Shown here one piece after another: positions 3,822 through 37,542 of a stretch of DNA of 64,000 bases. Below the pieces are notes generated by a model. That model saw nothing but the letters and a program-made list of their open reading frames with translations, made no database searches and was not told the origin of the DNA. The translations under genes and the position numbers were made by a program. The stretch is from the sequence record GQ981382. One strand, given 5' to 3'. Source of the stretch: Shigella phage SP18. Within the stretch, counting starts at the first letter, position 1; each line of letters starts with the position of its first letter.

Positions 3822-4047
3822 TTAATGTCATACCTTCGTTCCATGCTGTTTTCAGGTGCGGCATTCTGTTATACGTCGGCTCCGAGCTTATAGGAAATAT
3901 CCTGAAATCGCGATTACTTCCACCAAGCATATTGGCAGCTTTTATAATAGTTTCACTTTTATTCATTATAGTTGTACGTTGAACACCATGAATAAATGGA
4001 CCTTTAAAAACAATTATGGCTGATACACCTTCTGGTAAATTATTCAT
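3793..4047 (-). CDS. Hypothetical protein (84 aa)
   Basis: ORF track. Confidence 0.45.
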   Translation of the reverse strand: MNNLPEGVSAIIVFKGPFIHGVQRTTIMNKSETIIKAANMLGGSNRDFRIFPISSEPTYNRMPHLKTAWNEGMTLNEFEDYLND

Positions 4048-4370
4048 TTCGCACCCTTAATAATTTTCAGGTCAACAAAACCTTTCTTGCGCTGGGAATT
4101 CATACGCTTGATAGCTTTATCAGAAACTTCTTTGTTTTCACGCGGAAGCGGCAGACCAAACGCTACTACATCAAATTCATTCAGGATATACTGGACAAGG
4201 CTTTCACGAATACGCGCTTTACCCATTGTCTGACCTTCTGCAATAATCAACTTCTGTACATCGCCTTCCCACTGGTCCAGAATCTCAGGGGTAACGAAAC
4301 CAGATTTCATCAGAGTGTTAACTTTAGCAAATGCGAAATTAGTGATGATGTTAGTGATAGATGCAGTCAT
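4044..4370 (-). CDS. Hypothetical protein (108 aa)
   Basis: ORF track; hairpin-promoter cassette immediately upstream. Confidence 0.5.
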   Translation of the reverse strand: MTASITNIITNFAFAKVNTLMKSGFVTPEILDQWEGDVQKLIIAEGQTMGKARIRESLVQYILNEFDVVAFGLPLPRENKEVSDKAIKRMNSQRKKGFVDLKIIKGAK

Positions 4371-4403
4371 GATATATTCCTCAGTCTCATTAAATTAAAA
4401 TTT

Positions 4404-4440
4404 TATTATCCTAGGGTCATTATACCATGACCCCGTTGGT
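4404..4440 (-). promoter_or_regulatory. Early-promoter/stem-loop cassette (PeSL-like)
   Basis: Inverted repeat gggtcat/atgaccc whose loop carries minus-sense TATAAT; sits upstream of the 4370 start. Confidence 0.4.
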
Positions 4441-6501: not shown

Positions 6502-6972
6502 TTAATCATGTTTCCACACCCCATCGGTATTTGACCAAAGTCGCTGATTATCTGACCCTCGCCACAGTTTTTTGGTCGGAAGATTTTTCTCATACTTCCC
6601 ATCAATAATAACATCAACATATTTAAGCATTTCTAGTTGTTTAATATCTTCAAACTTATATCCCGTCCACATCCAAATGCTTTTATTGGGATAAAGATTT
6701 TTAATAGTTTGAACCACAGAGTGAATAACATCTCGGTTATCAGGATAGAGAGGGTCTCCTCCGGTTATAGTTAATCCTTCTATATAATCATTATTCAAAC
6801 ATTCAATTAATTGTTCTAGTGTTTTACCAGTAAATGGAACACCATTTCTAGCATTCCATGTTGATTTATTATAACACCCTTCGCATTTATGCAAACAACC
6901 TGTAACGAAAAGAACGACCCTACAACCAGGGCCATTCACAAAATCACAAGGATAAATTCTATCATAATTCAT
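6502..6972 (-). CDS. nrdG: Anaerobic ribonucleotide reductase activating protein NrdG (radical SAM)
   Basis: 156 aa; CxxxCxxC-type cluster CLHKCEGCYN; directly downstream of nrdD. Confidence 0.88.
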   Translation of the reverse strand: MNYDRIYPCDFVNGPGCRVVLFVTGCLHKCEGCYNKSTWNARNGVPFTGKTLEQLIECLNNDYIEGLTITGGDPLYPDNRDVIHSVVQTIKNLYPNKSIWMWTGYKFEDIKQLEMLKYVDVIIDGKYEKNLPTKKLWRGSDNQRLWSNTDGVWKHD

Positions 6973-8786
6973 TGATGTTTAACCCTATGCATGATTTCTT
7001 TATTTTTGCCGAGATTAAATCCACGTTCGTTCGGATTCCCCAAATAGCCGCATGTTCTTCTTATTGTGTTCATCTTTTTAGGGTCAGTTTCTCCACAAAT
7101 AGAACAAACAAATCCGTTTTCAGTAGGAGTCATTTCATGGGTACTTCCACACGTAAAACATTTATCTACTGGCATATTAACACCAAAATAATCTAAATGT
7201 TGTGCAGCATAATCCCATACAGCCTCAAGACCTTTTAAGTTATTTTTCATATCAGGAAGTTCAACATAAGAAATGTGACCACCTGTTGCAATGAAATGAT
7301 ACGGTGCTTCGCGAGAAATCTTTTCAAACGGAGTAATATTTTCTTCTACTGAAACGTGGAAACTATTAGTGTACCAGCCTTTATCAGTAACATCTTTTAC
7401 ACTTCCATATTTTTCGGTATCAAGTTTACAGAAGCGATAGCACAGGTTTTCAGCAGGAGTAGAATACAAACTAAAAGCAAATCCGGTTCTTTCAGTCCAC
7501 TGCTTAAGACGAGCATTCATTTTAGTCAAAATTTCTTGTCCAATATCACGACCGACAAGAATATTCAATTCGTGAATACCAATGTATCCTAAGGACACTG
7601 AACTTCTACCGTTTTTAAATAACTCAATTATATCGTCATCGGGTTTAAGACGAACCCCGAATGCACCTTCTTGATAAAGAATAGGAGCAACAGTCGCTTT
7701 AACTCCTTTTAAGGAACTAATTCTACACATCAAAGCTTCAAAACATAAATCCATTCGCTCATTGAACAATTCAGTAAATTTCTGTTCATTGAACTGTGTT
7801 CCAATATAAGAATCTAATGCAATGCGAGGAAGATTCAGTGTTACAACACCAAGATTATTACGTCCATCAAGAATTTCATTACCAGTCGAATCTTTCCATA
7901 CGCCCAAGAAACTACGACAACCCATTGGAGAAACAGGAATAGATGAACCAGTGATAGCTTTGTTATTCTTAGCTGAAATGATATCAGGATACATTCTTTT
8001 GCTTGCACACTCTAAAGCAAGCTGCTTAATATCATAGTTTGGGTCGTCTTTATAAAGATTAACACCTTCTTCAACGAACATAACAAGTTTAGGGAAAATA
8101 GGAGTTATCCCATCACGACCAAGACCTTTAATACGATTTTTCAGAATTGCTTTCTGAATCATTCGTTCGGTCCAGTCAGTTCCGGTACCAAATGTAATTG
8201 TCACAAAAGGAGTCTGACCATTTGAGCTAAAGAGAGTATTTACTTCATATTCATAAGCTTGGAATGCATCGTATACGTCTTTTTCTGTTTTAGATTGGGC
8301 ATAATTCAACGCATCAGTGATTTGCCATTTTTCCGCGTCCTCAATATGTTTCGCATAGGTACGTTTAACATAAGGAGAAAGTACTTTATCTACATTCGCA
8401 AAAGTCGTTCCGCCATATTGATGGGAAGCAACCTGCGCAGTAATTTGTGCCATAATTGCAGTAGCAACACTGATTGATTTAGGAGTTTCAATCTGTGCAT
8501 TACCGAGTTTAAATCCGTTCTCAAGCATTCCTTTTAAATCTACTAAACAGCAATTAGTAAATGGAAGAGCAGGGGAATAATCAATATCATGGAAATGAAT
8601 AATTCCGCTTTCATGTGCTTTCATAATAAAAGACGCGACCATATTTTTGGCAATATGTTTAGATACAATACCAGCCATAAGGTCACGTTGAGTTGGAAAA
8701 ACACGAGAATCTTTATTAGCATTCTCGTTTAAAAGGTCTTTATTAGTTTTATGAATCAATCCTTCAATTTCGTTTTCAATTGTCAT
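6969..8786 (-). CDS. nrdD: Anaerobic ribonucleoside-triphosphate reductase NrdD (class III)
   Basis: 605 aa, uninterrupted; C-terminal zinc ribbon CFTCGS...CSICG and glycyl-radical region RTCGYLG. Confidence 0.93.
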   Translation of the reverse strand: MTIENEIEGLIHKTNKDLLNENANKDSRVFPTQRDLMAGIVSKHIAKNMVASFIMKAHESGIIHFHDIDYSPALPFTNCCLVDLKGMLENGFKLGNAQIETPKSISVATAIMAQITAQVASHQYGGTTFANVDKVLSPYVKRTYAKHIEDAEKWQITDALNYAQSKTEKDVYDAFQAYEYEVNTLFSSNGQTPFVTITFGTGTDWTERMIQKAILKNRIKGLGRDGITPIFPKLVMFVEEGVNLYKDDPNYDIKQLALECASKRMYPDIISAKNNKAITGSSIPVSPMGCRSFLGVWKDSTGNEILDGRNNLGVVTLNLPRIALDSYIGTQFNEQKFTELFNERMDLCFEALMCRISSLKGVKATVAPILYQEGAFGVRLKPDDDIIELFKNGRSSVSLGYIGIHELNILVGRDIGQEILTKMNARLKQWTERTGFAFSLYSTPAENLCYRFCKLDTEKYGSVKDVTDKGWYTNSFHVSVEENITPFEKISREAPYHFIATGGHISYVELPDMKNNLKGLEAVWDYAAQHLDYFGVNMPVDKCFTCGSTHEMTPTENGFVCSICGETDPKKMNTIRRTCGYLGNPNERGFNLGKNKEIMHRVKHQ

Positions 8787-16350: not shown

Positions 16351-16592
16351 TAGATTGCACTCCAAAAATTATGGAATCTTATAGTATTGATAGCCCAGTT
16401 AACAAACCTGCGAGTTTGCTTGGAAGTTGGTTTACATGTGTACTTGATATTGACCCGACGCCCAGTTTCCCGACAGACCGCTTCGAGATACCAGCGCCGA
16501 CCTTTATTGGGTCTTCCATATGATAAGAAGACCTTGATTTCCTGGTTATCGATAATAGGAATTGTGGTTGTCAAGATATACCTCTTCAACAA
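16350..16592 (-). CDS. Hypothetical basic protein (80 aa)
   Basis: ORF track; overlaps the 3' end of the nucleotidyltransferase ORF. Confidence 0.35.
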   Translation of the reverse strand: MLKRYILTTTIPIIDNQEIKVFLSYGRPNKGRRWYLEAVCRETGRRVNIKYTCKPTSKQTRRFVNWAINTIRFHNFWSAI

Positions 16593-17556
16593 ACTTGTCC
16601 CAGAACTTCATGTCCACCTTCTCAGGCATACCATTCTTAGCGGCCCAGATAGCATTAGTTTCGACTTCATCAACGATAGCTTCAAGTTCGGCCTGCACAT
16701 CTTTAAAAGCATGAAGCCCTTGTTTGATTTCAAGGATAAATGGTGCTGTACGTAAAGGATATTGGAGGTCGCCAGTCATATAGATTTCCTTCAACTGGTA
16801 TCCAGCCCGATAAGCATGGCTCAGAGCTTTCCAGTCGATACCTTCATTAGCTTCAGCCTTACGAGCGCGCTCGCCATATTCCGCATCGAGCTTATTCAGA
16901 GATTGCTTGAGCTCGATTAAAGACAAGGTGGTTTGGTACTTACGTCCAAGAACAGTATAGAACGTTTGAGGACCAGTTTTCTCGTGGTTATGGAATACCC
17001 ATTCACAAAACTCGTTTTCAGGGAGTCTGTGTTTGATATCTTCTACCTTAGTTCGACGTTGCTTAGTCGAACCGTCTTCTTGATAATCGACCCACTGTTC
17101 AGGAATCTGGTTAACGATTGCCAGTACACCACGTAGAGCGGCCAGTCGAGAACCTTTAACACCATATTTGGAAGCTTGCTTACGGACATACCCCAAATAG
17201 GCTTTCATGTTGGTTGTATAGAACCGCGAACGGTTATCCTGAATAAACTTCCATACATCTGGTAAATCGGATTTGACAACCAGGTCAGCCGGTGTGTGAA
17301 TCATGTCCAGGGCAACGGTTTCGCCATCGGCTGCCAGTTTAAAGAAATATTTCAGACTATAAAGTTCATGGTCAACATCATCTTTTGTATTTTTGGTAGC
17401 CGTGTTATTCGTGTTCAGGTTTGTATGGTTCATCGCGGTTCCGAGCAGGATATCTCGCGGATGAGGAACGAAGATTTCTTTAAAATCAACATCAGATTCC
17501 GGAGTACTTGTTCCATAAAGGTGGGAGCCAAAATATCCCTTCATAACAGTTCTCAT
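16546..17556 (-). CDS. Putative nucleotidyltransferase (Pol-beta-like fold)
   Basis: N-terminal GS-x10-DVD motif (YFGSHLYGTSTPESDVDF) and downstream acidic VALDMIH; start set at the MRTVMKGYF Met to avoid overlap. Confidence 0.55.
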   Translation of the reverse strand: MRTVMKGYFGSHLYGTSTPESDVDFKEIFVPHPRDILLGTAMNHTNLNTNNTATKNTKDDVDHELYSLKYFFKLAADGETVALDMIHTPADLVVKSDLPDVWKFIQDNRSRFYTTNMKAYLGYVRKQASKYGVKGSRLAALRGVLAIVNQIPEQWVDYQEDGSTKQRRTKVEDIKHRLPENEFCEWVFHNHEKTGPQTFYTVLGRKYQTTLSLIELKQSLNKLDAEYGERARKAEANEGIDWKALSHAYRAGYQLKEIYMTGDLQYPLRTAPFILEIKQGLHAFKDVQAELEAIVDEVETNAIWAAKNGMPEKVDMKFWDKFVEEVYLDNHNSYYR

Positions 17557-18005
17557 TTTTTGTCCTCGAAGTGGATTACAGGGCACATCTTAGATTTACG
17601 AGCTTTAATGTATTGAATAACGATGTTTTCTTTAGTTTCCTTTCCTTCACGTTTGGCTAGAATACGTTGCCATTCCTTTTCTTCTTTACGTAAATCATAC
17701 CAGGACCATAAATTCATTAGACCATACATTAAACCAAATGCTACCGCCAGAATAAGAGCCAGTGTAGCTAGTCCTAAAATAAACCCTAAACCTAAACCAA
17801 CCGGGGTACTTAATACAAAGAAATGCTCTAATACACCAGCCCCCGCGACAGTGAATCCAAAAACCACACTACCGATAAAAATGGCACAAACAAAACAGGC
17901 CCAAACCATTTTCCAAAAGTAAGCACACAATGAGTGTGGACGAGAATGGCGGTCATAAAATTTATCGTGGAAACGAGCATGCCAAGAGTTTGCATTGATA
18001 ATCAT
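17553..18005 (-). CDS. Multi-pass membrane protein (150 aa)
   Basis: Three or more hydrophobic helices; C-terminal basic tail. Confidence 0.5.
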   Translation of the reverse strand: MIINANSWHARFHDKFYDRHSRPHSLCAYFWKMVWACFVCAIFIGSVVFGFTVAGAGVLEHFFVLSTPVGLGLGFILGLATLALILAVAFGLMYGLMNLWSWYDLRKEEKEWQRILAKREGKETKENIVIQYIKARKSKMCPVIHFEDKK

Positions 18006-25730: not shown

Positions 25731-26030
25731 TTAGAAAGAACCAGAGCCTTTAATTGTGTTCTGGCGACCTTTATTTTCTAATTCAGAATGGTCAATTTCA
25801 TATGCTTGTGCTACACCAAAAGCCTTTTTAACTTTAGCTAAAGAACCTTTAGATGTAACAATATTAAAAGTATTACCTTTGGTAAAATCAACCAAATCCA
25901 CTTGTACACCTTGTTTACCGAGGCTTGCGACAATAGCATCAACATATTGTTGGTCTAAATTGCCCTGGACTCCAATTTGGAATGCTTTAGGAGCTTTAGC
26001 TTCTGTGATAAATTCTTGATAAGTTTTCAT
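25731..26030 (-). CDS. Internal-protein-like capsid-targeted protein (MKTYQEFITE N-terminus)
   Basis: N-terminus MKTYQEFITEAK matches the T4 IPI/IPII/IPIII capsid targeting sequence with a protease-type ITE site. Confidence 0.7.
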   Translation of the reverse strand: MKTYQEFITEAKAPKAFQIGVQGNLDQQYVDAIVASLGKQGVQVDLVDFTKGNTFNIVTSKGSLAKVKKAFGVAQAYEIDHSELENKGRQNTIKGSGSF

Positions 26031-26038
26031 TTATTCTC

Positions 26039-26078
26039 TCCAAGTTGATGGGATAATTATGCACTATCCCATCAAAAA
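26039..26078 (-). promoter_or_regulatory. Early-promoter/stem-loop cassette (PeSL-like)
   Basis: 9-bp inverted repeat gatgggata/tatcccatc with minus-sense TATAAT-like loop. Confidence 0.45.
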
Positions 26079-26086
26079 GTAAACAG

Positions 26087-26350
26087 TTATGCTTTACCGC
26101 CAGAAACAATACCAAAGGTCTCAAAGTCCCATTCAATATCGTCAACATCAACTTTCTTACCAGCAACCACGAATGCGATTTCGCGACGTTTTGCATAGGT
26201 GACAATTTCTTTACCGTCACCACCAAAGAAAGAATAACCATTGCGCTTCATGGTGCCAAAGTCTTCAGCATCACCAGCAAACGCGCGGACTTTAAAGGAA
26301 CCGGCAGGAGCTTTAGTAGATTCAGTAATAAATTCTTGATAAGTTTTCAT
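26087..26350 (-). CDS. Internal-protein-like capsid-targeted protein
   Basis: N-terminus MKTYQEFITESTKA. Confidence 0.7.
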   Translation of the reverse strand: MKTYQEFITESTKAPAGSFKVRAFAGDAEDFGTMKRNGYSFFGGDGKEIVTYAKRREIAFVVAGKKVDVDDIEWDFETFGIVSGGKA

Positions 26351-26363
26351 AATGTCTCTTTAA

Positions 26364-26678
26364 TTACTCTTTAGGGAAATCGCGCAAAAACGCATCATAA
26401 AGTTTATTACCAATGCGACGGAATGCTTTTGCCGCATGAACGTTATCCGGATTTGCAATTTTAATTTGCATTACATGACTACCGGCCCATGATTTGGCTT
26501 CATCATAATAGCCTTTAATTTCTTTAATAGTCTTACGTTTTCCGCCAGGACCATCAACAGTAATTTTCCACGAACCGGTGCTTGTTTCACTTGGTGGGGT
26601 TAATTGTTCAATCCAGACATAACCGCCTTCAACACGTTTTTGGGTAGATTCAGTAATAAATTCTTGATAAGTTTTCAT
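26364..26678 (-). CDS. Internal-protein-like capsid-targeted protein
   Basis: Start moved to internal Met giving MKTYQEFITESTQ; conserved leader DNA cagtaataaattcttgataagttttcat. Confidence 0.65.
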   Translation of the reverse strand: MKTYQEFITESTQKRVEGGYVWIEQLTPPSETSTGSWKITVDGPGGKRKTIKEIKGYYDEAKSWAGSHVMQIKIANPDNVHAAKAFRRIGNKLYDAFLRDFPKE

Positions 26679-26726
26679 TTTATATTCCATTGTTTGGTTG
26701 ATAAAATCATTATACAACCTTTTTAG

Positions 26727-27713: not shown

Positions 27714-28172
27714 TTATCCGAAAATTTGAGTCAGTACCTTATACATCGATTTGCCCATCACGTACTGCCATTGGCTCGGTTTAATCAGAGCAAACGCATC
27801 AAACTCTGGGACCGAACTGCCATCCGGGAAGGTATGATAGGCAGAGCATTTACTATGTCTGAACTGCTCATGCTCGACCGGAACCGTGTACAAAAACAGG
27901 TGAAGGTTTTTATTATCTGAATAACGGAACTCACCGAGGTCTTTTAAGAATGCTGGGTCATATTGGGTAAACCCGGTTTCTTCTTCGGTTTCACGGATAG
28001 CAGCTTCAATCGGGGATTCATCAGCTTCAACATGACCCTTAGGGATGTCCCATTTGTGCGCAGGCATACCTGGTTTACGAGAACCGGTCACACGACCCAT
28101 GAATAACTCTTTATCTTCAGTCATGAAAATAATGCCAGCAGATAATTCTTTCACCTTGTTTTTCTTACTCAT
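27714..28172 (-). CDS. nudE: Nudix hydrolase NudE
   Basis: Nudix box GHVEADESPIEAAIRETEEETG; position next to e as in T4. Confidence 0.85.
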   Translation of the reverse strand: MSKKNKVKELSAGIIFMTEDKELFMGRVTGSRKPGMPAHKWDIPKGHVEADESPIEAAIRETEEETGFTQYDPAFLKDLGEFRYSDNKNLHLFLYTVPVEHEQFRHSKCSAYHTFPDGSSVPEFDAFALIKPSQWQYVMGKSMYKVLTQIFG

Positions 28173-28401: not shown

Positions 28402-28982
28402 TTACGGCATTCCTCAATAAAAGAATTTAATGTATTTTTCTTAGCGATATCGTCGTATACCTTTTTAACTTTAGAAATACGAAAAGGTACTTCAATAGTC
28501 ATAGTCCATAAAAATGATGCAATAAGTCCAACAGCAGCAGAAGAAATGCACGCGCCCATTACAGCCACAGGCGCTTCATTTTTACCTGTCAGGAAAAACC
28601 ACAGGATTGGTAAAAATAAGATTCCAGACCAAGCATAAAACCTGGAACAAATTAACTTATCAAATTCATCTTTCCAGGTACGAAATCCATATTTCTTGCT
28701 ATAAGAAATTAATGGGTCGGGCGTCTGTTCTTTGAGTGGTTCTGGTTGATACCCATTAATGATGTATCCCATTTTATATTCCTTAATTAAAAGCTCTTTC
28801 ACATGACGATTGCATCGCGACCAATCAACATTTTCCACCTTGATTCCTTCATCACCATCATCAAGGTTCGCCCAATATTTTTTGGTAATCATAAATTCAT
28901 CTCTTGATACAATTATACCTGCATTTTCTGCCCGACGGATGAAGTTTACATCAACACCCATACAACCAGGTTCATACAGCAT
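28398..28982 (-). CDS. Membrane protein with C-terminal FIEEC motif (194 aa)
   Basis: Two hydrophobic helices; C-terminal NSFIEECRK shared with other ORFs in the window. Confidence 0.5.
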   Translation of the reverse strand: MLYEPGCMGVDVNFIRRAENAGIIVSRDEFMITKKYWANLDDGDEGIKVENVDWSRCNRHVKELLIKEYKMGYIINGYQPEPLKEQTPDPLISYSKKYGFRTWKDEFDKLICSRFYAWSGILFLPILWFFLTGKNEAPVAVMGACISSAAVGLIASFLWTMTIEVPFRISKVKKVYDDIAKKNTLNSFIEECRK

Positions 28983-29667
28983 TACCAGCCCTCCATAGGA
29001 AATTCCAGATATACTTGAGCATTAACGCGGATTTCATTGGTGATTTTATTAACGCGGTCAGTTTTACGAGATACACGACCAAACCAGCGCCAACCATTAC
29101 CAACTGTTTTTGTTCCAGTATGCCAGGTCTGCCAGTTGAATTCACACAACGTGCGGTCAGGAGCTTCTTGAACTAAAAGTTCACCCGCCTTGATTTTTTC
29201 CAGAACTTCCTGGTGCCACTGGCGATAGATAAGTTCGCCATCAGGAATCTGACTGAATTCTGAAGTTCCCAGAGCAAAATGAGTAGGGCAAACAGAAGCG
29301 TTAACCAGACCCAGGATGTGTTCAGAATGGTAACGAGGGTTATCATAATCAGGTTGTCCTGCTGTAATAAAATGTTGTCCTGCTGGAATATCTGGACGTG
29401 GTACATCATCATGGTGATACCCAGGGATAGCAGGATACCAACCAGGCATCAACATATGGACGCGAGAGTCAAATACAACATCACGATTGGTCCAGTCCAG
29501 TGGTAATGCAGCAATAAAGCTACGGGTAATTAAACCGCCTTTATCCCAGGCAAAACTTAAATCACAATTAAAGAACATCGGTTCATTTTTGATTTCGTCA
29601 TTACTGACATATTGAGCAAATTGACCAACTTCACGCATTTGACTATTAAAAGTTTTTGAGCTATTCA
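28982..29667 (-). CDS. Hypothetical protein (about 228 aa from internal Met)
   Basis: Track ORF 28982-29806 trimmed to the MNSSKTF Met so it does not overlap the upstream ORF. Confidence 0.5.
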
Positions 29668-29678
29668 TGATATTTTCC

Positions 29679-29903
29679 TCAGTATTCTTCATCATATTCA
29701 AAGTCTTCATCAAACTCGGGTTCCAGAGAAATTTCTTCTTCTGGGTGGAATTCACAAGGGAAATATTCCACTTCACCACAATCGGCGTCATAGGACTGGA
29801 AATCAATTTGGATTACGGTTTCGGATACAACAATAACTTCAGCAACCAAGTCACCTGCAATTTCCATTCCAACTTTAACATCTTTAGCTTTGATAGTATT
29901 CAT
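29679..29903 (-). CDS. Hypothetical acidic protein
   Basis: Start set at MNTIKAKDV Met preceded by GGAGAATAAA; promoter cassette upstream. Confidence 0.45.
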   Translation of the reverse strand: MNTIKAKDVKVGMEIAGDLVAEVIVVSETVIQIDFQSYDADCGEVEYFPCEFHPEEEISLEPEFDEDFEYDEEY

Positions 29904-29968
29904 TTTATTCTCCAATTTGGTAACTCAGTATGGAATCATTATGCACTGACTCCATACTGATGTACACA
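29904..29968 (-). promoter_or_regulatory. Early-promoter/stem-loop cassette (PeSL-like)
   Basis: ttttattctcc...ggtaactcagtatggaatcattatgcac...gatgtacacac. Confidence 0.45.
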
Positions 29969-29969
29969 C

Positions 29970-30929
29970 TTATTTTGTGAAAGGACGAATTAAATGTTGG
30001 TTAGCCTTAAAGCGTTTAACATAGTCTTCGCGCCCCAGGGTGTTGTACATATTAACCACTTCCTGGTAATGTTCCCAGGCATACTCACGGAACCATCCAG
30101 ACGTAATGGAGGTGCAGACTTTTTCCAGCGCAATATGGAAGCTCACAGATGGAGAGATATTGAACTCATTAGGAACCTGCGAACGCTCCAGAGCGAGCAC
30201 ACATGCTTCTTCATAAACCCCTGCCAGTTTAATAACATCAGGGAGCGCTTCAAATTTTTCACGCGAGGTCATGACTTCTGAATCATCCTTCATATAGAAC
30301 TTATATGCAGGCTTATCAGCAAGCGCCACGGCCTCGTGGATGGAGTCATGGTCAAGGGTATAGATTGTATCATTAAAGAAAGTTTTCTTGCCCACGTCTA
30401 GTTTAGGGTGACTGTATGACAGTGTTTCTGTCTGACGATGCAGCATGATTTTCTGCAGTTCATCATTAAGAACAATACCCTTATTGCGAAGGTAATTAAT
30501 ATGACTCATGGTCTTCAGGAAGAATGGATTGTTCTTCAGGTAACGATGAGACAATTTGATTGCCAAACAAATATCAGGGGTCGCCCAGTAAAAACCAGAT
30601 AGACGGTCTCTCTGAATATTTGCCTTCGCATATTTGAGCAGACGATAACTGGAGGTAAAATCTTCGTCTTGAAGCTCATCAGTCAACTCACGAACACTTG
30701 TCAGTGCGCGGACGATGTACGCTTCAAAATAGGTTTCTTTACCATTGTGCATACATTTAAAAGCTTGAACATCTGGGTTATCCACATGCACGTGCTGCCC
30801 CATCATCTGGGTTTTAAAACTGTTCCAAGAACCCTGGTCAGCGATAAAGTCCCAATCAGAGTTTTCAATTTTCTGACTTTCAATCAGACCAGCGTTATGT
30901 AATGCACGAGAACCAATAACTAACATCAT
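29970..30929 (-). CDS. Hypothetical protein (319 aa), possible nucleotidyltransferase-like N-terminus
   Basis: N-terminal VIGSRAL...SDWDF loosely resembles GS...DxD; otherwise unrecognised. Confidence 0.5.
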   Translation of the reverse strand: MMLVIGSRALHNAGLIESQKIENSDWDFIADQGSWNSFKTQMMGQHVHVDNPDVQAFKCMHNGKETYFEAYIVRALTSVRELTDELQDEDFTSSYRLLKYAKANIQRDRLSGFYWATPDICLAIKLSHRYLKNNPFFLKTMSHINYLRNKGIVLNDELQKIMLHRQTETLSYSHPKLDVGKKTFFNDTIYTLDHDSIHEAVALADKPAYKFYMKDDSEVMTSREKFEALPDVIKLAGVYEEACVLALERSQVPNEFNISPSVSFHIALEKVCTSITSGWFREYAWEHYQEVVNMYNTLGREDYVKRFKANQHLIRPFTK

Positions 30930-30942
30930 AATATTTTCCTCA

Positions 30943-31110
30943 TTAGTAAAGACGAGTTACTTCATATTTTCCAAGTGCCGATTTTTTCGCTTCAATTCGT
31001 GAGGCAGCAAGATTGGCGGCCTCTAGTGAAGAAAATTGAACCACTTGAGAAGTATTCTGTCTTACTCCGCCTTGCGGGTGAGTGACAAAAACAATAAGAA
31101 CATTATACAT
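30943..31110 (-). CDS. Small hypothetical protein (about 55 aa)
   Basis: Hand-translated MYNVLIVFVTHPQGG...; coordinates approximate. Confidence 0.3.
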   Translation of the reverse strand: MYNVLIVFVTHPQGGVRQNTSQVVQFSSLEAANLAASRIEAKKSALGKYEVTRLY

Positions 31111-31745: not shown

Positions 31746-31973
31746 TTATTTTCCTAACGAAATGCGAGTAGGTTTTTTACCGAAATATTCTTCATAGGAA
31801 CCATCTAAACGACCCGCTTTAGACCGACAATACGAATCATACTTTTTGTAATAAGTCAACTCGGTATTGTAACGTGGATGTCTATCAGCCATAATAATAC
31901 TTAACGGCCAACCTTTGGCGTAATCACGAAGACCATTTATTTTACGAATATATCTTTTCTTTAATTTTAACAT
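31746..31973 (-). CDS. Hypothetical basic protein (75 aa)
   Basis: ORF track. Confidence 0.4.
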   Translation of the reverse strand: MLKLKKRYIRKINGLRDYAKGWPLSIIMADRHPRYNTELTYYKKYDSYCRSKAGRLDGSYEEYFGKKPTRISLGK

Positions 31974-32200
31974 GAACTTGGGTACCAGATTTTACCATCG
32001 GCACTAGCAACGAAGGTGCGACCAGCTTCTTCCCCATAACAAGAGCTGTTCAACCAGTCTTCAAGACGGACTTCGCCGTCATAATCATCAAGCTCAACAC
32101 CAAAATCTTGAGCAGAAGCCATATCTTTTACTTTCTTATACAGTGCAGCCAGTTCAAGGGCGGCTTTTTCTAATTCAGCACGTTCAACAGCAGTAGTCAT
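31967..32200 (-). CDS. Small paralog family member, C-terminal ...WYPSSC
   Basis: 77 aa; ends GKIWYPSSC; one of five tandem paralogs. Confidence 0.5.
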   Translation of the reverse strand: MTTAVERAELEKAALELAALYKKVKDMASAQDFGVELDDYDGEVRLEDWLNSSCYGEEAGRTFVASADGKIWYPSSC

Positions 32201-32209
32201 TTTATCACC

Positions 32210-32437
32210 TTAGCAAGACATAGAGGAGTTAAACCAGAAACCTTTACCATCTGGGATACCGTAATCACCACGAATCCAGTCATACTCTTCGTATTCTGGA
32301 CAACCCGCAGGAATATATCGTTGAAGACTGTCAGCATACACATGAAAGTATTCACCAGTTTTATCGGCCAGTTGTTCACCTTCACAGATTAGTGCACGGA
32401 TTTGGTCTTCAATTTCTTTAACAGTTTTAGCAGTCAT
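32210..32437 (-). CDS. Small paralog family member, C-terminal ...FWFNSSMSC
   Basis: 75 aa; ends GKGFWFNSSMSC. Confidence 0.5.
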   Translation of the reverse strand: MTAKTVKEIEDQIRALICEGEQLADKTGEYFHVYADSLQRYIPAGCPEYEEYDWIRGDYGIPDGKGFWFNSSMSC

Positions 32438-32446
32438 TTTATTTCC

Positions 32447-32644
32447 TTAGCATTCATAAGAGGAGGACACCCAGGAGCCACCCGTAATTGTAATACAGCC
32501 ATTGTAAATCGTGATATGACGGTCCAGATGGTTTTCACCTTCGATATAGATGTCGGCTTCTTCACGTTCTTCTTTACAAATCTGGATAACGTTTTCAATA
32601 GCTGCCGCGGCAGTACGGATTGCACAATCTAATTCACGAGACAT
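32447..32644 (-). CDS. Small paralog family member, C-terminal ...WVSSSYEC
   Basis: 65 aa; ends GGSWVSSSYEC. Confidence 0.5.
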   Translation of the reverse strand: MSRELDCAIRTAAAAIENVIQICKEEREEADIYIEGENHLDRHITIYNGCITITGGSWVSSSYEC

Positions 32645-32653
32645 AATAATTCC

Positions 32654-32935
32654 TTAACATTCAGAAGAGGAGGACACCCAACCACCTTTTTCCAGGTCAG
32701 TTGTATAGTCATGAGTATTAACAATAGCCCATTCAGGATGACCATGTTCTTCCCAATGGGCAAGGTCTGCTTTCAGGGCGCCAGGAGAATAATAGTCACC
32801 GCCCATACCGCGAGCAGGGTATATATTAAAATGAGTCTCATATTTGTCTGCAATTTCCTCGGCACGACGAATAGCTTTATGGATGTCATTTACTGCGTTA
32901 GCCAGTTCTTTATTTTTACGGTAATCATTCATCAT
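32654..32935 (-). CDS. Small paralog family member, C-terminal ...WVSSSSEC
   Basis: 93 aa; ends KGGWVSSSSEC. Confidence 0.5.
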   Translation of the reverse strand: MMNDYRKNKELANAVNDIHKAIRRAEEIADKYETHFNIYPARGMGGDYYSPGALKADLAHWEEHGHPEWAIVNTHDYTTDLEKGGWVSSSSEC

Positions 32936-32944
32936 AACGTTTCC

Positions 32945-33235
32945 TTAGCACATTGCCGAAGAGGAGACCCAAGCACCAACTGTAACGACACCGTTTTCAA
33001 CTTCACCGCCGTTGTTTTCAATTTCATTTTTAAACCACTGGGAGCATTCATAACCGACAGGATAATATGTACGGCCCGAACCATAATCACCGGTACCAAA
33101 TTGGATACCATATTCATCTGCGATTTCTTCACAGTGTTTTTCAATTTCAGAGGTCTTATTTAGAAGAGAATAGATAGCTTTTTCTGCAGATTTCTCATCA
33201 TAATACTTGGGGATAGCAATTTCAATTTTATTCAT
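32945..33235 (-). CDS. Small paralog family member, C-terminal ...WVSSSAMC
   Basis: 96 aa; ends VGAWVSSSAMC. Confidence 0.5.
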   Translation of the reverse strand: MNKIEIAIPKYYDEKSAEKAIYSLLNKTSEIEKHCEEIADEYGIQFGTGDYGSGRTYYPVGYECSQWFKNEIENNGGEVENGVVTVGAWVSSSAMC

Positions 33236-37214: not shown

Positions 37215-37290
37215 TTGGTCGAGACAGTAGGGATCGAACCTACGACCTAGGACTTAGAAGGTCCTTGCTCTTCCTTCTGAGCTATGCCTC
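37215..37290 (-). tRNA. tRNA-Arg (anticodon UCU)
   Basis: Minus-sense cloverleaf CGAGGCA...CTTCTAA...GTAGGTTCGATCCCTAC...TGTCTCGACCA; anticodon loop CU-UCU-AA. Confidence 0.8.
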
Positions 37291-37295
37291 GTAAT

Positions 37296-37369
37296 TTGCG
37301 GACACACATGGATTCGAACCATGGACCAATTGATTAACAGTCAACTGCTCTACCACTGAGCTATGCATC
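37296..37369 (-). tRNA. tRNA-Asn (anticodon GUU)
   Basis: Minus-sense GGATGCATAGCTCAGTGGTAGAGC...CTGTTAA...CATGGTTCGAATCCATG; anticodon GTT. Confidence 0.75.
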
Positions 37370-37373
37370 CAAA

Positions 37374-37448
37374 TTGGTGGCCCTTGCTGGTTTCGATCCA
37401 GCTACCTATCAGTTATGAGCTGACAGCTCTCCCATTGAGCTAAAGGGC
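37374..37448 (-). tRNA. tRNA with CAU anticodon (Met or lysidine-modified Ile)
   Basis: Minus-sense GGCCCTTTAGCTCAATGGGAGAGC...CTCATAA...GCTGGATCGAAACCAGC AAGGGCC ACCA; T-loop reads AUCGAAA. Confidence 0.75.
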
Positions 37449-37542
37449 CAATTCTATTATGAAAGGCTCTTTGAGGGAAGAACCTTTGGTAATAGAGGGT
37501 ACTTATTAATAATAACACATAACTCTTAAAGCATATTACTTG

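Follow-up and report, generated by a model that had tools for sequence, protein, structure and literature searches.

A predicted nucleotidyltransferase of Shigella phage SP18 and the small proteins with an invariant C-terminal tail encoded upstream of it

What is the product of the 319-amino-acid (aa) open reading frame (ORF) at positions 29970-30929 on the minus strand of Shigella phage SP18 (record GQ981382), and with which partner does it work? The stretch of 64,000 nucleotides (nt) that was analysed, the window in the following, comes from a T4-like Gaprivervirus. The original prediction had noticed that the N-terminus of this ORF, MMLVIGSRALHNAGLIESQKIENSDWDFIAD, loosely fits the GS...DxD core of a nucleotidyltransferase, and had called the resemblance weak. 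The ORF itself is real: it starts with ATG behind a Shine-Dalgarno sequence, its N-terminus reads as quoted, and its strand, which had not been stated before, is the minus strand. Our analysis places the protein, called the enzyme here for short, in a phage family with a predicted DNA polymerase beta-type (pol-beta) nucleotidyltransferase fold and a conserved putative active site. Its gene is linked, across many phages, to genes of small proteins ending in W-x-x-S-S-x-x-C, which we call tail proteins. The best reading of these data is that the enzyme acts on the tails or is controlled by them.

The motif that led to the nucleotidyltransferase guess is weak evidence when taken alone, since the pattern G[GS]-x9-20-D-x-[DE] was present in 8.8% of shuffles of the enzyme sequence as well as in 11 of the 73 window ORFs of at least 100 aa. 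It rises above chance because it is conserved across the family. Among 262 diverse relatives, down to 36% identity, G6 was kept in 99%, S7 in 97%, D25 in 99% and D27 in 100%, and the position of E69 held E in 92% and D in a further 5%. GS and DxD persisted at only 24-29% identity, in the relatives from a Gordonia phage (an actinophage) and from a roseophage. The spacing of the motif had been described as longer than usual. The 17 residues between S7 and D25 are indeed there, but such a spacing is ordinary for the subgroup, as ANT(2'')-Ia has 15 between G28 and D44. Likewise, 42 residues separate D27 from E69 and 40 separate D46 from D86 in ANT(2''); the sequence of this protein, AadB, was verified, and the numbering of its catalytic residues is the one we take to apply.

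Structure prediction, in which an unrelated fold would have spoken against the guess, instead yielded a nucleotidyltransferase fold. An AlphaFold2 model built from a 40-sequence alignment reached a predicted local distance difference test score (pLDDT) of 89.8 and a predicted template modelling score (pTM) of 0.83. When it was compared with the PDB by Foldseek, the best match was MenT1 (expectation value E 1.5e-3, probability 1.00), and probabilities of at least 0.97 were obtained only for nucleotidyltransferases, namely MenT1, the nucleotidyltransferase-like protein 5uvd and TM1012. The model shares the minimal alpha/beta core with solved members of the DNA polymerase beta-like superfamily. 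In it, I5-G6-S7 forms the turn between strand 2-5 and helix 6-12, in the hG[GS] arrangement, D25-W-D27-F opens strand 26-30 as a [DE]h[DE]h element, and F68-E69-A70 lies on strand 64-72, a placement that refers to the order along the sequence and not to the spatial distance from D25 and D27. The modelled positions of GS and DxD are canonical for pol-beta-type nucleotidyltransferases, and so is, along the sequence, that of E69. In the predicted architecture, the N-terminal catalytic core (aa 1 to ~105) is very small and precedes a large helical lobe, the first helices of which resemble the helical lobe of MenT/AbiEii-type enzymes. Since 147 residues were aligned with MenT, helices ~118-170 alone probably explain the part of this alignment that extends past the N-terminal core. 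We are highly confident in the pol-beta fold of the model, and from the conserved residues and their modelled positions we infer that the enzyme is probably catalytically active.

Profile searches place the protein in a family of its own. It matched Pfam DUF7277 at aa 2-101 (E 2e-27, 96.1 bits, cut-off 27) and DUF7275 at aa 120-305 (E 2.5e-75, 252.9 bits, cut-off 27), as well as PHROG 2141 over its full length (E 2.5e-147). All three are catalogue entries without an assigned function, the Pfam text reading 'Domain of unknown function', and we found no literature on DUF7275 or DUF7277. Pfam searches at E up to 10 with the query and 40 members brought up no family beyond these two, and neither AbiEii/DUF1814 nor PF10127; the single nucleotidyltransferase match among the 40 members was a weak one to DUF6036 (E 0.045, in one of the 40). 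NCBIfam and PADLOC gave no matches for the enzyme. In hhalign comparisons, in which a single-sequence target limits sensitivity, the family profile aligned to ANT(2'') with a probability of 0.2% and showed no similarity to the RlaP protein of the window. The absence of any such profile or database match indicates that the enzyme is not a sequence-level member of the AbiEii/DUF1814, RlaP or ANT/Lnu families. Searches of PDB sequences with the protein and with the family profile returned photosystem I PsaB and RNase L at E of at least 0.3, which we discarded as chance matches.

The family is large. A collection of 5.8 billion proteins contained 2057 family matches, and an exhaustive search gave 1555 clusters at 50% identity, of which 538 had an E of at most 1e-30. 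By tblastn the protein was found in 730 phage records. Carriers from many T4-like genera infect Escherichia, Klebsiella, Enterobacter, Serratia, Aeromonas and Acinetobacter, and further carriers are rV5-like phages, Pseudomonas Otagovirus, jumbo phages, Vibrio, Streptomyces and Gordonia phages and one roseophage; the coliphages among them include Gaprivervirus, Dhakavirus, Mosigvirus, rV5-like and jumbo phages. The annotation is nearly always 'hypothetical protein', with 'putative nucleotidyltransferase' in the Acinetobacter phages Lazarus, Apostate and DLP2. A scan of 185,579 bacterial and archaeal species, one genome each, yielded five loci, all of them on metagenome-assembled or uncultured-isolate contigs; the scan used two exact peptide patterns, which distant cellular relatives could escape. 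The family thus appears largely confined to phages. T4 itself probably lacks both the enzyme and the small ORFs upstream of it, because the annotators of phage VR25, who flagged T4 homologues, gave none for these genes.

The most conserved part of the protein is not the catalytic core but the C-terminal ~200 residues that make up DUF7275. No solved fold neighbour was found for this domain, the last ~150 residues being without a solved relative. Invariant across the family are K125, S127, H128, K139, H194, D195, H198, E240, E241, E248, R249, T273 and S274. The H...HD...H...E residues prompted us to consider an HD-domain phosphohydrolase, which was rejected since the fold is not HD; an assignment as HEPN was rejected as well, because the R281-x5-H287 pair is not conserved and position 287 is mostly N. 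The strong conservation of this domain over the catalytic one, together with tblastn matches to distant phages that often span aa 110-319 only, might be taken to mean that the nucleotidyltransferase fold is inactive and that its role is to bind the tail proteins or to provide a scaffold for them. We consider this very improbable. Pseudo-enzymes usually lose their catalytic residues, whereas in the 262 sequences the acidic triad and the GS turn are kept at 97-100% (with E or D counted for E69), and the most distant relatives have kept the catalytic residues too.

Our main addition to the original prediction concerns the genomic surroundings of the enzyme gene. We assembled 105 loci, consisting of 80 from IMG/VR, those collected earlier and the window, and clustered their ORFs all-against-all. 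A sole widely recurrent neighbour family emerged, present by BLAST linkage in 65 loci of 11 lineages and with a median length of ~86 aa. Although this clustering was blind to any tail pattern, 94 of the 96 members of the family end in W-x-x-S-S-x-x-C, with the cysteine as the last residue. Scanning both strands for this pattern within 10 kb on either side of the enzyme gene gave 205 ORFs among ~19,700 open segments with a minimum length of 40 aa; 201 were on the strand of the enzyme and 194 lay at most 3 kb upstream of its start. Tail proteins were thereby seen in 90 of the 105 loci and 18 of the 26 lineages, in one to four strict-pattern copies per locus, and often only 4-80 nt separate the tail gene from the enzyme gene. 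Profile searches added variant tails in three further loci (...WTSSSQN, ...WQSSTKCW and ...KWAGSSC), and a tail ORF was also found just upstream in four of the five loci from bacterial and archaeal genome collections. The reverse approach led to the same pairing: two small proteins that a profile search had picked out were followed by a DUF7275 gene 0.7 and 2.2 kb downstream, and tblastn with one small protein retrieved 358 phage records from the same genera as the enzyme.

The small proteins share a common layout, in which the N-terminal part is helical and closes with ...AD-E-x-x-[IL]-x-F, often followed by YG-x-G-x-x-Y, and an acidic linker then leads to the tail. The only invariant feature is the C-terminal W-x-x-S-S-x-x-C. 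They belong to PHROG 899 and PHROG 4882, which have no function assigned, and matched no Pfam family; a big-database search with their profile returned 30 matches, all unnamed, the low number being due to the shortness of the proteins. No downstream gene family conserved across the loci was found. From these data, a functional coupling of the enzyme to the tail proteins is likely. The pairing looks new, as we found neither a published description of it nor literature linking a nucleotidyltransferase to C-terminal-cysteine peptides in phages.

In the window, the tail proteins are encoded by a tandem array of five paralogous genes at 31967-33235 (minus strand), with products of 65-96 aa (Table 1). 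Throughout the 64 kb, the strict pattern occurs in this array only, at 32210-33235.

Table 1. Positions of the enzyme gene, its parts and the tail-protein genes in the window
Feature	Position	Strand	Match or remark
Nucleotidyltransferase-like gene (DUF7277 + DUF7275 protein)	29970..30929	-	ORF; stop codon 29970-29972
N-terminal catalytic domain, aa 1 to ~105, predicted minimal pol-beta nucleotidyltransferase core	30615..30929	-	
Motif codons G6-S7; D25-W-D27; E69	30909-30914; 30849-30857; 30723-30725	-	
C-terminal domain, aa 112-319, predicted all-helical, DUF7275	29973..30596	-	
Shine-Dalgarno GAGGA, 7 nt ahead of ATG	30937..30941	-	Read directly off the sequence
Tail protein 1, 96 aa, ...GAWVSSSAMC	32945..33235	-	PHROG 899, E 5e-23; no Pfam family
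Tail protein 2, 93 aa, ...GGWVSSSSEC	32654..32935	-	PHROG 899, E 1.9e-20
Tail protein 3, 65 aa, ...GSWVSSSYEC	32447..32644	-	PHROG 4882, E 3.3e-36
Tail protein 4, 75 aa, ...GFWFNSSMSC	32210..32437	-	PHROG 899, E 3.5e-15
Tail protein 5, 77 aa, shortened tail ...KIWYPSSC	31967..32200	-	PHROG 899, E 6.9e-10; fails strict pattern

How could an enzyme of this kind and such tails work together? We tentatively favor a two-part module in which an active pol-beta-superfamily nucleotidyltransferase is joined by the upstream tail proteins, with a tail serine ranked first among the possible acceptors. In such a module, D25, D27 and E69 would hold two Mg2+ ions, and a nucleoside triphosphate would be bound at its triphosphate by the G6-S7 turn and, from the helical lobe, by the invariant K125, H128 and K139. 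A nucleoside monophosphate (NMP) would then be moved onto a hydroxyl held in the cleft between the lobes. The tail would enter this cleft and be read by the conserved C-terminal domain, and the accepting hydroxyl would be that of a tail serine, resulting in protein nucleotidylylation. The serine was ranked first because the tail is the conserved element and carries two invariant hydroxyls, and because the presence of several paralogues is more in keeping with substrates than with inhibitors. Taken on its own, the identification of the tail serine as the acceptor is more doubtful than the module as a whole. A candidate surface for reading the tail may be formed by R165, Y172, H174, P175, C272, S277, F280 and R281. 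These eight residues are kept only in the subfamily with tail proteins and are lost in the Vibrio phages K406 and RYC, Streptomyces phage Annadreamy and Gordonia phage JonJames, where the catalytic and core invariants are kept; the comparison is confounded by the overall divergence of these four tail-less lineages.

Several observations weigh against this proposal. We know of no pol-beta-fold enzyme that modifies a serine in a C-terminal peptide tail. Of the closest characterised neighbours, MenT1, MenT3 and MenT4 add nucleotides to tRNA 3' ends (PMC10435456, PMC7450476) and ANT(2'') and LnuA to small molecules, and none of them acts on proteins. About a quarter of the lineages are tail-less, yet their catalytic residues are kept, and the tail is therefore neither the sole substrate nor a universal requirement. 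In the window, four unrelated small ORFs stand between the array and the enzyme gene. The gene linkage could also reflect a shared regulation rather than direct contact of the products. The isoelectric point of the family, ~6.1, has little weight either way.

A bolder version of the proposal, which we think improbable, is an undescribed system of protein modification in which the enzyme nucleotidylates one of the tail serines, at -3 or -4 relative to the C-terminal cysteine. This could end in either of two ways. The nucleotide might stay, and the resulting protein-nucleotide or protein-primed oligonucleotide conjugate might act as a decoy for host immunity. Alternatively, the nucleotide might leave, converting the serine to dehydroalanine, whose attack by the invariant terminal cysteine would give a lanthionine-like S-x-x-C ring; lyase and cyclase functions would then fall to the His/Asp/Glu cluster of the C-terminal domain. 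The S-x-x-C-COOH spacing is that of the C-terminal rings in epidermin-type peptides.

The same gene arrangement is open to a different interpretation, which is the main rival to ours. The pair may resemble a toxin-antitoxin system, with an enzyme that, in the manner of MenT and AbiEii, extends tRNA or other RNA by nucleotides at the 3' end, and with tail proteins that plug its active site as inhibitors or timers. MenT1 is the best structural neighbour, and the antitoxin MenA1 (68 aa), which is encoded directly upstream of MenT1, blocks the active site (PMC10435456, PMC7450476). The gene order is the same here, a small gene preceding the enzyme on the same strand at the short distances given above, and an invariant tail on an otherwise drifting protein would suit a plug for an invariant active site. 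We nevertheless regard this explanation as rather unlikely. Even with E values up to 10 allowed, Pfam did not connect the enzyme with AbiEii/DUF1814, and the small proteins are unlike MenA1 or AbiEi and matched no Pfam family. One to five tandem paralogues would be unusual for an antitoxin, and the enzyme occurs without a tail protein in several lineages, where an unrestrained toxin should not be tolerated. Large phages, moreover, need translation, so that a general tRNA poison would harm them.

The wider neighbourhood of the homologues differs between lineages and includes genes of RNA repair. In the window, a 346-aa ORF at 16546-17586 (minus strand) matched Pfam RlaP (PF10127) at E 6.6e-11 and cleared the curated cut-off; T4 NrdC.11 belongs to this family, which adds one or two NMPs to damaged RNA (PMC12776372). 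Together with the lack of profile similarity between this ORF and the 319-aa enzyme, the match bears out the suggestion that the phage encodes two distinct nucleotidyltransferase-fold proteins. Elsewhere, RNA ligase 2 and a phosphoesterase are found near the homologue of roseophage DSS3_VP1, an RNA ligase near that of Streptomyces phage Annadreamy, and an RNA ligase, a confirmed Pnkp and phosphoesterases near that of Salmonella jumbo phage SE_PL (locus L015, 2991-10449). An ATP-dependent ligase lies close to the homologue in locus L018; RlaP, an RNA-ligase-like gene and Pnkp do so in locus L020 (6628-16900), and Pnkp with a Metallophos phosphoesterase in loci L111-L113 (L111, 1-6651). Pnkp at these clusters has the architecture AAA_33 + HAD_PNKP. 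Overall, by plain count, ligase, Pnkp or RlaP genes occur within 10 kb in some lineages, are not adjacent and are absent from most. In locus L018, past the ATP-dependent ligase and three genes downstream of the homologue, we noticed a 198-aa protein (3834-4430) with a weak Pfam match to Gad2; Gad2 is a phage anti-Gabija protein.

These neighbours suggest that the enzyme might restore nucleotides at damaged 3' ends of RNA or tRNA beside RNA ligase and Pnkp, in the way of RlaP or CCA-adding enzymes, with the tail proteins being incidental. In a number of unrelated lineages, RNA-repair genes are indeed a few kb from the homologue, and the activity of RlaP on damaged RNA offers a precedent (PMC12776372). 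The association is loose, however, at 1-8 kb, and is missing from most lineages including the window; large phages bunch their accessory nucleic-acid genes, so that the expectation by chance is not small. The phage already carries RlaP, and this reading does not account for the far closer linkage with the tail proteins. RNA repair therefore seems quite unlikely as the function. A linkage to tRNA genes was considered and rejected. The homologue of Gordonia phage JonJames has tRNA genes 1.5 kb away, and the window contains three (Arg-TCT, Asn-GTT and Met-CAT) at 37216-37449 on the same strand, ~6.3 kb upstream of the enzyme; adjacency was thus seen in one actinophage only.

A second group of variable neighbours belongs to the metabolism of nicotinamide adenine dinucleotide (NAD) and related compounds. 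Within 6 kb of the enzyme, NAMPT-like genes were found in six lineages, genes resembling phosphoribosyl pyrophosphate (PRPP) synthase in four, and members of a Nudix/phosphatase family in five. In the tail-less Vibrio phages K406 (locus L014, 4216-7169) and RYC (locus L016, 4419-7396), a PRPP-synthase-like gene, a small phosphatase gene and a NAMPT-like gene stand directly upstream, a trio which we take to resemble the phage NAD-reconstitution pathway NARP1. Sir2 is found near the homologue in rV5-like phages and an ADP-ribosyltransferase in Acinetobacter phage Lazarus, and nudE (27714-28172) is 1.8 kb from the enzyme gene in the window. The acceptor might accordingly be a small molecule, be it a metabolite of NAD or ADP-ribose, a signalling nucleotide of host immunity, or an antibiotic-type compound as for ANT(2'') and LnuA. 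Against this speak the lack of profile similarity to ANT(2'') and the metabolic neighbours themselves, which change between lineages and in most of them do not adjoin the gene; the tail proteins also find no explanation. We regard a small-molecule acceptor as improbable. The neighbours from RNA repair and NAD metabolism, which vary by lineage, we read as marking an accessory host-conflict region rather than a specific pathway, and the module of enzyme and tail proteins remains our preferred reading.

The immediate surroundings of the gene in the window are those of a Gaprivervirus. Its DNA is 95-97% identical in phages P479, VR25 and their relatives. The counterpart in Gaprivervirus VR25 is gp134 (95-98% identical, annotated as 'hypothetical protein'), with the E.2/nudE/e block on one side and a series of small ORFs on the other. 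The original prediction had put the gene downstream of the nudE block, but along the direction of transcription, on the minus strand, it is upstream of nudE. A 55-aa ORF precedes the gene and has its stop codon at 30943-30945, 13 nt ahead of the enzyme ATG; this tight spacing suggests that the enzyme is translated from a polycistronic transcript. A scan for promoters and terminators between the tail-protein array and the enzyme gene gave nothing convincing, with counts at the level of shuffled sequence and hence uninformative.

On the gene's opposite side, a 78-aa acidic ORF (29679-29915, minus strand, PHROG 22890) separates the enzyme gene from its next neighbour. It looks like a small lineage-specific insertion, because VR25 has there only a 60-nt gap and no annotated gene. 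The next gene (28982-29668, minus strand) encodes a 228-aa protein of PHROG 1843 that resembles VR25 gp133, has no Pfam family and contains ...MPGWYPAIPGYHHDDVP.... It was considered as a conserved downstream partner and rejected, since it is not homologous to the ~227-243-aa downstream proteins of other phages; a similar-looking ...PGWHIDGF... was noticed by eye in a 218-aa neighbour of the roseophage DSS3_VP1 homologue. Further away, the anaerobic ribonucleotide reductase NrdD (6969-8786, minus strand; Pfam NRDD, E 5e-171) is an ordinary T4-like gene that helps to place the window on the T4 map. Three consecutive small ORFs at 25731-26717 (minus strand) share the peptide MKTYQEFITE, which stands at the N-terminus of two and lies 13 residues into the listed reading of the third. 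Their VR25 annotations are ip7, internal head protein and ip10, and the peptide resembles the capsid-targeting leader of T4 internal head proteins.

As an advance, the fold assignment is modest: it adds a new family to a superfamily that is well known, and had been guessed before by a few annotators. The architecture, a catalytic core fused to a large conserved domain without a solved fold relative, looks new, and we found no paper on it. Many carriers are coliphages used in the laboratory and in therapy, yet nearly all records say 'hypothetical'. The predicted fold, the conserved partner and an active site that is intact make two domains of unknown function and two PHROGs without a function testable at the bench. 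Should the tails be substrates, the module would be a viral system of protein nucleotidylation or ring formation, possibly a new chemistry; should they be inhibitors, it would be a phage-carried MenT-like enzyme accompanied by a regulator of a new class. Both readings touch on the way in which large phages handle host translation and immunity. Related enzymes, such as MenT, RlaP and Gad2, are already known to matter in this area.

Among known systems, RlaP is one of the closest. Both it and the enzyme are phage-encoded members of the pol-beta superfamily, and both are sometimes located near genes for RNA ligase and Pnkp. RlaP forms a separate family, however, and no tail-protein partner was found reported for it in the literature. 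ANT(2'')-Ia (AadB) is similar in motif spacing, with distances to DxD and to the third acid that are each shorter by two residues only (15 vs 17 and 40 vs 42). Like LnuA and JHP933, it is a small two-lobed nucleotidyltransferase, and the substrates of this group are antibiotics or unassigned. These proteins differ from the enzyme in their length of 160-225 aa, in lacking the DUF7275 extension and partner proteins, and in showing no sequence-profile similarity.

A further comparison is with MenT1, MenT3 (TglT), MenT4 and AbiEii, the DUF1814 nucleotidyltransferase toxins of Mycobacterium tuberculosis and Streptococcus. These toxins and the enzyme have in common two lobes, a minimal pol-beta core and a helical lobe with invariant lysines, together with a GS/T-x-D-x-D active site, and the MenT1 gene and the enzyme gene alike follow a short upstream ORF. 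In the C-terminal lobe of the toxins, K189 and D211 of MenT3 and K137 and D152 of MenT1 are required for toxicity. The enzyme has the invariant K125 and K139 on the first helices of its helical lobe, whereas an equivalent invariant Asp was not seen at the spacing expected from MenT. Identity to the toxins is 10-12%, with no Pfam match to AbiEii/DUF1814, and the enzyme carries ~150 extra C-terminal residues with an invariant His/Asp/Glu cluster of their own and no solved fold neighbour. MenT and AbiEii reside in cellular genomes, whereas the enzyme is nearly phage-only. Finally, its upstream partners are tandem paralogues outside any Pfam family that end in the W-x-x-S-S-x-x-C tail, and in this they are unlike the MenT antitoxins.

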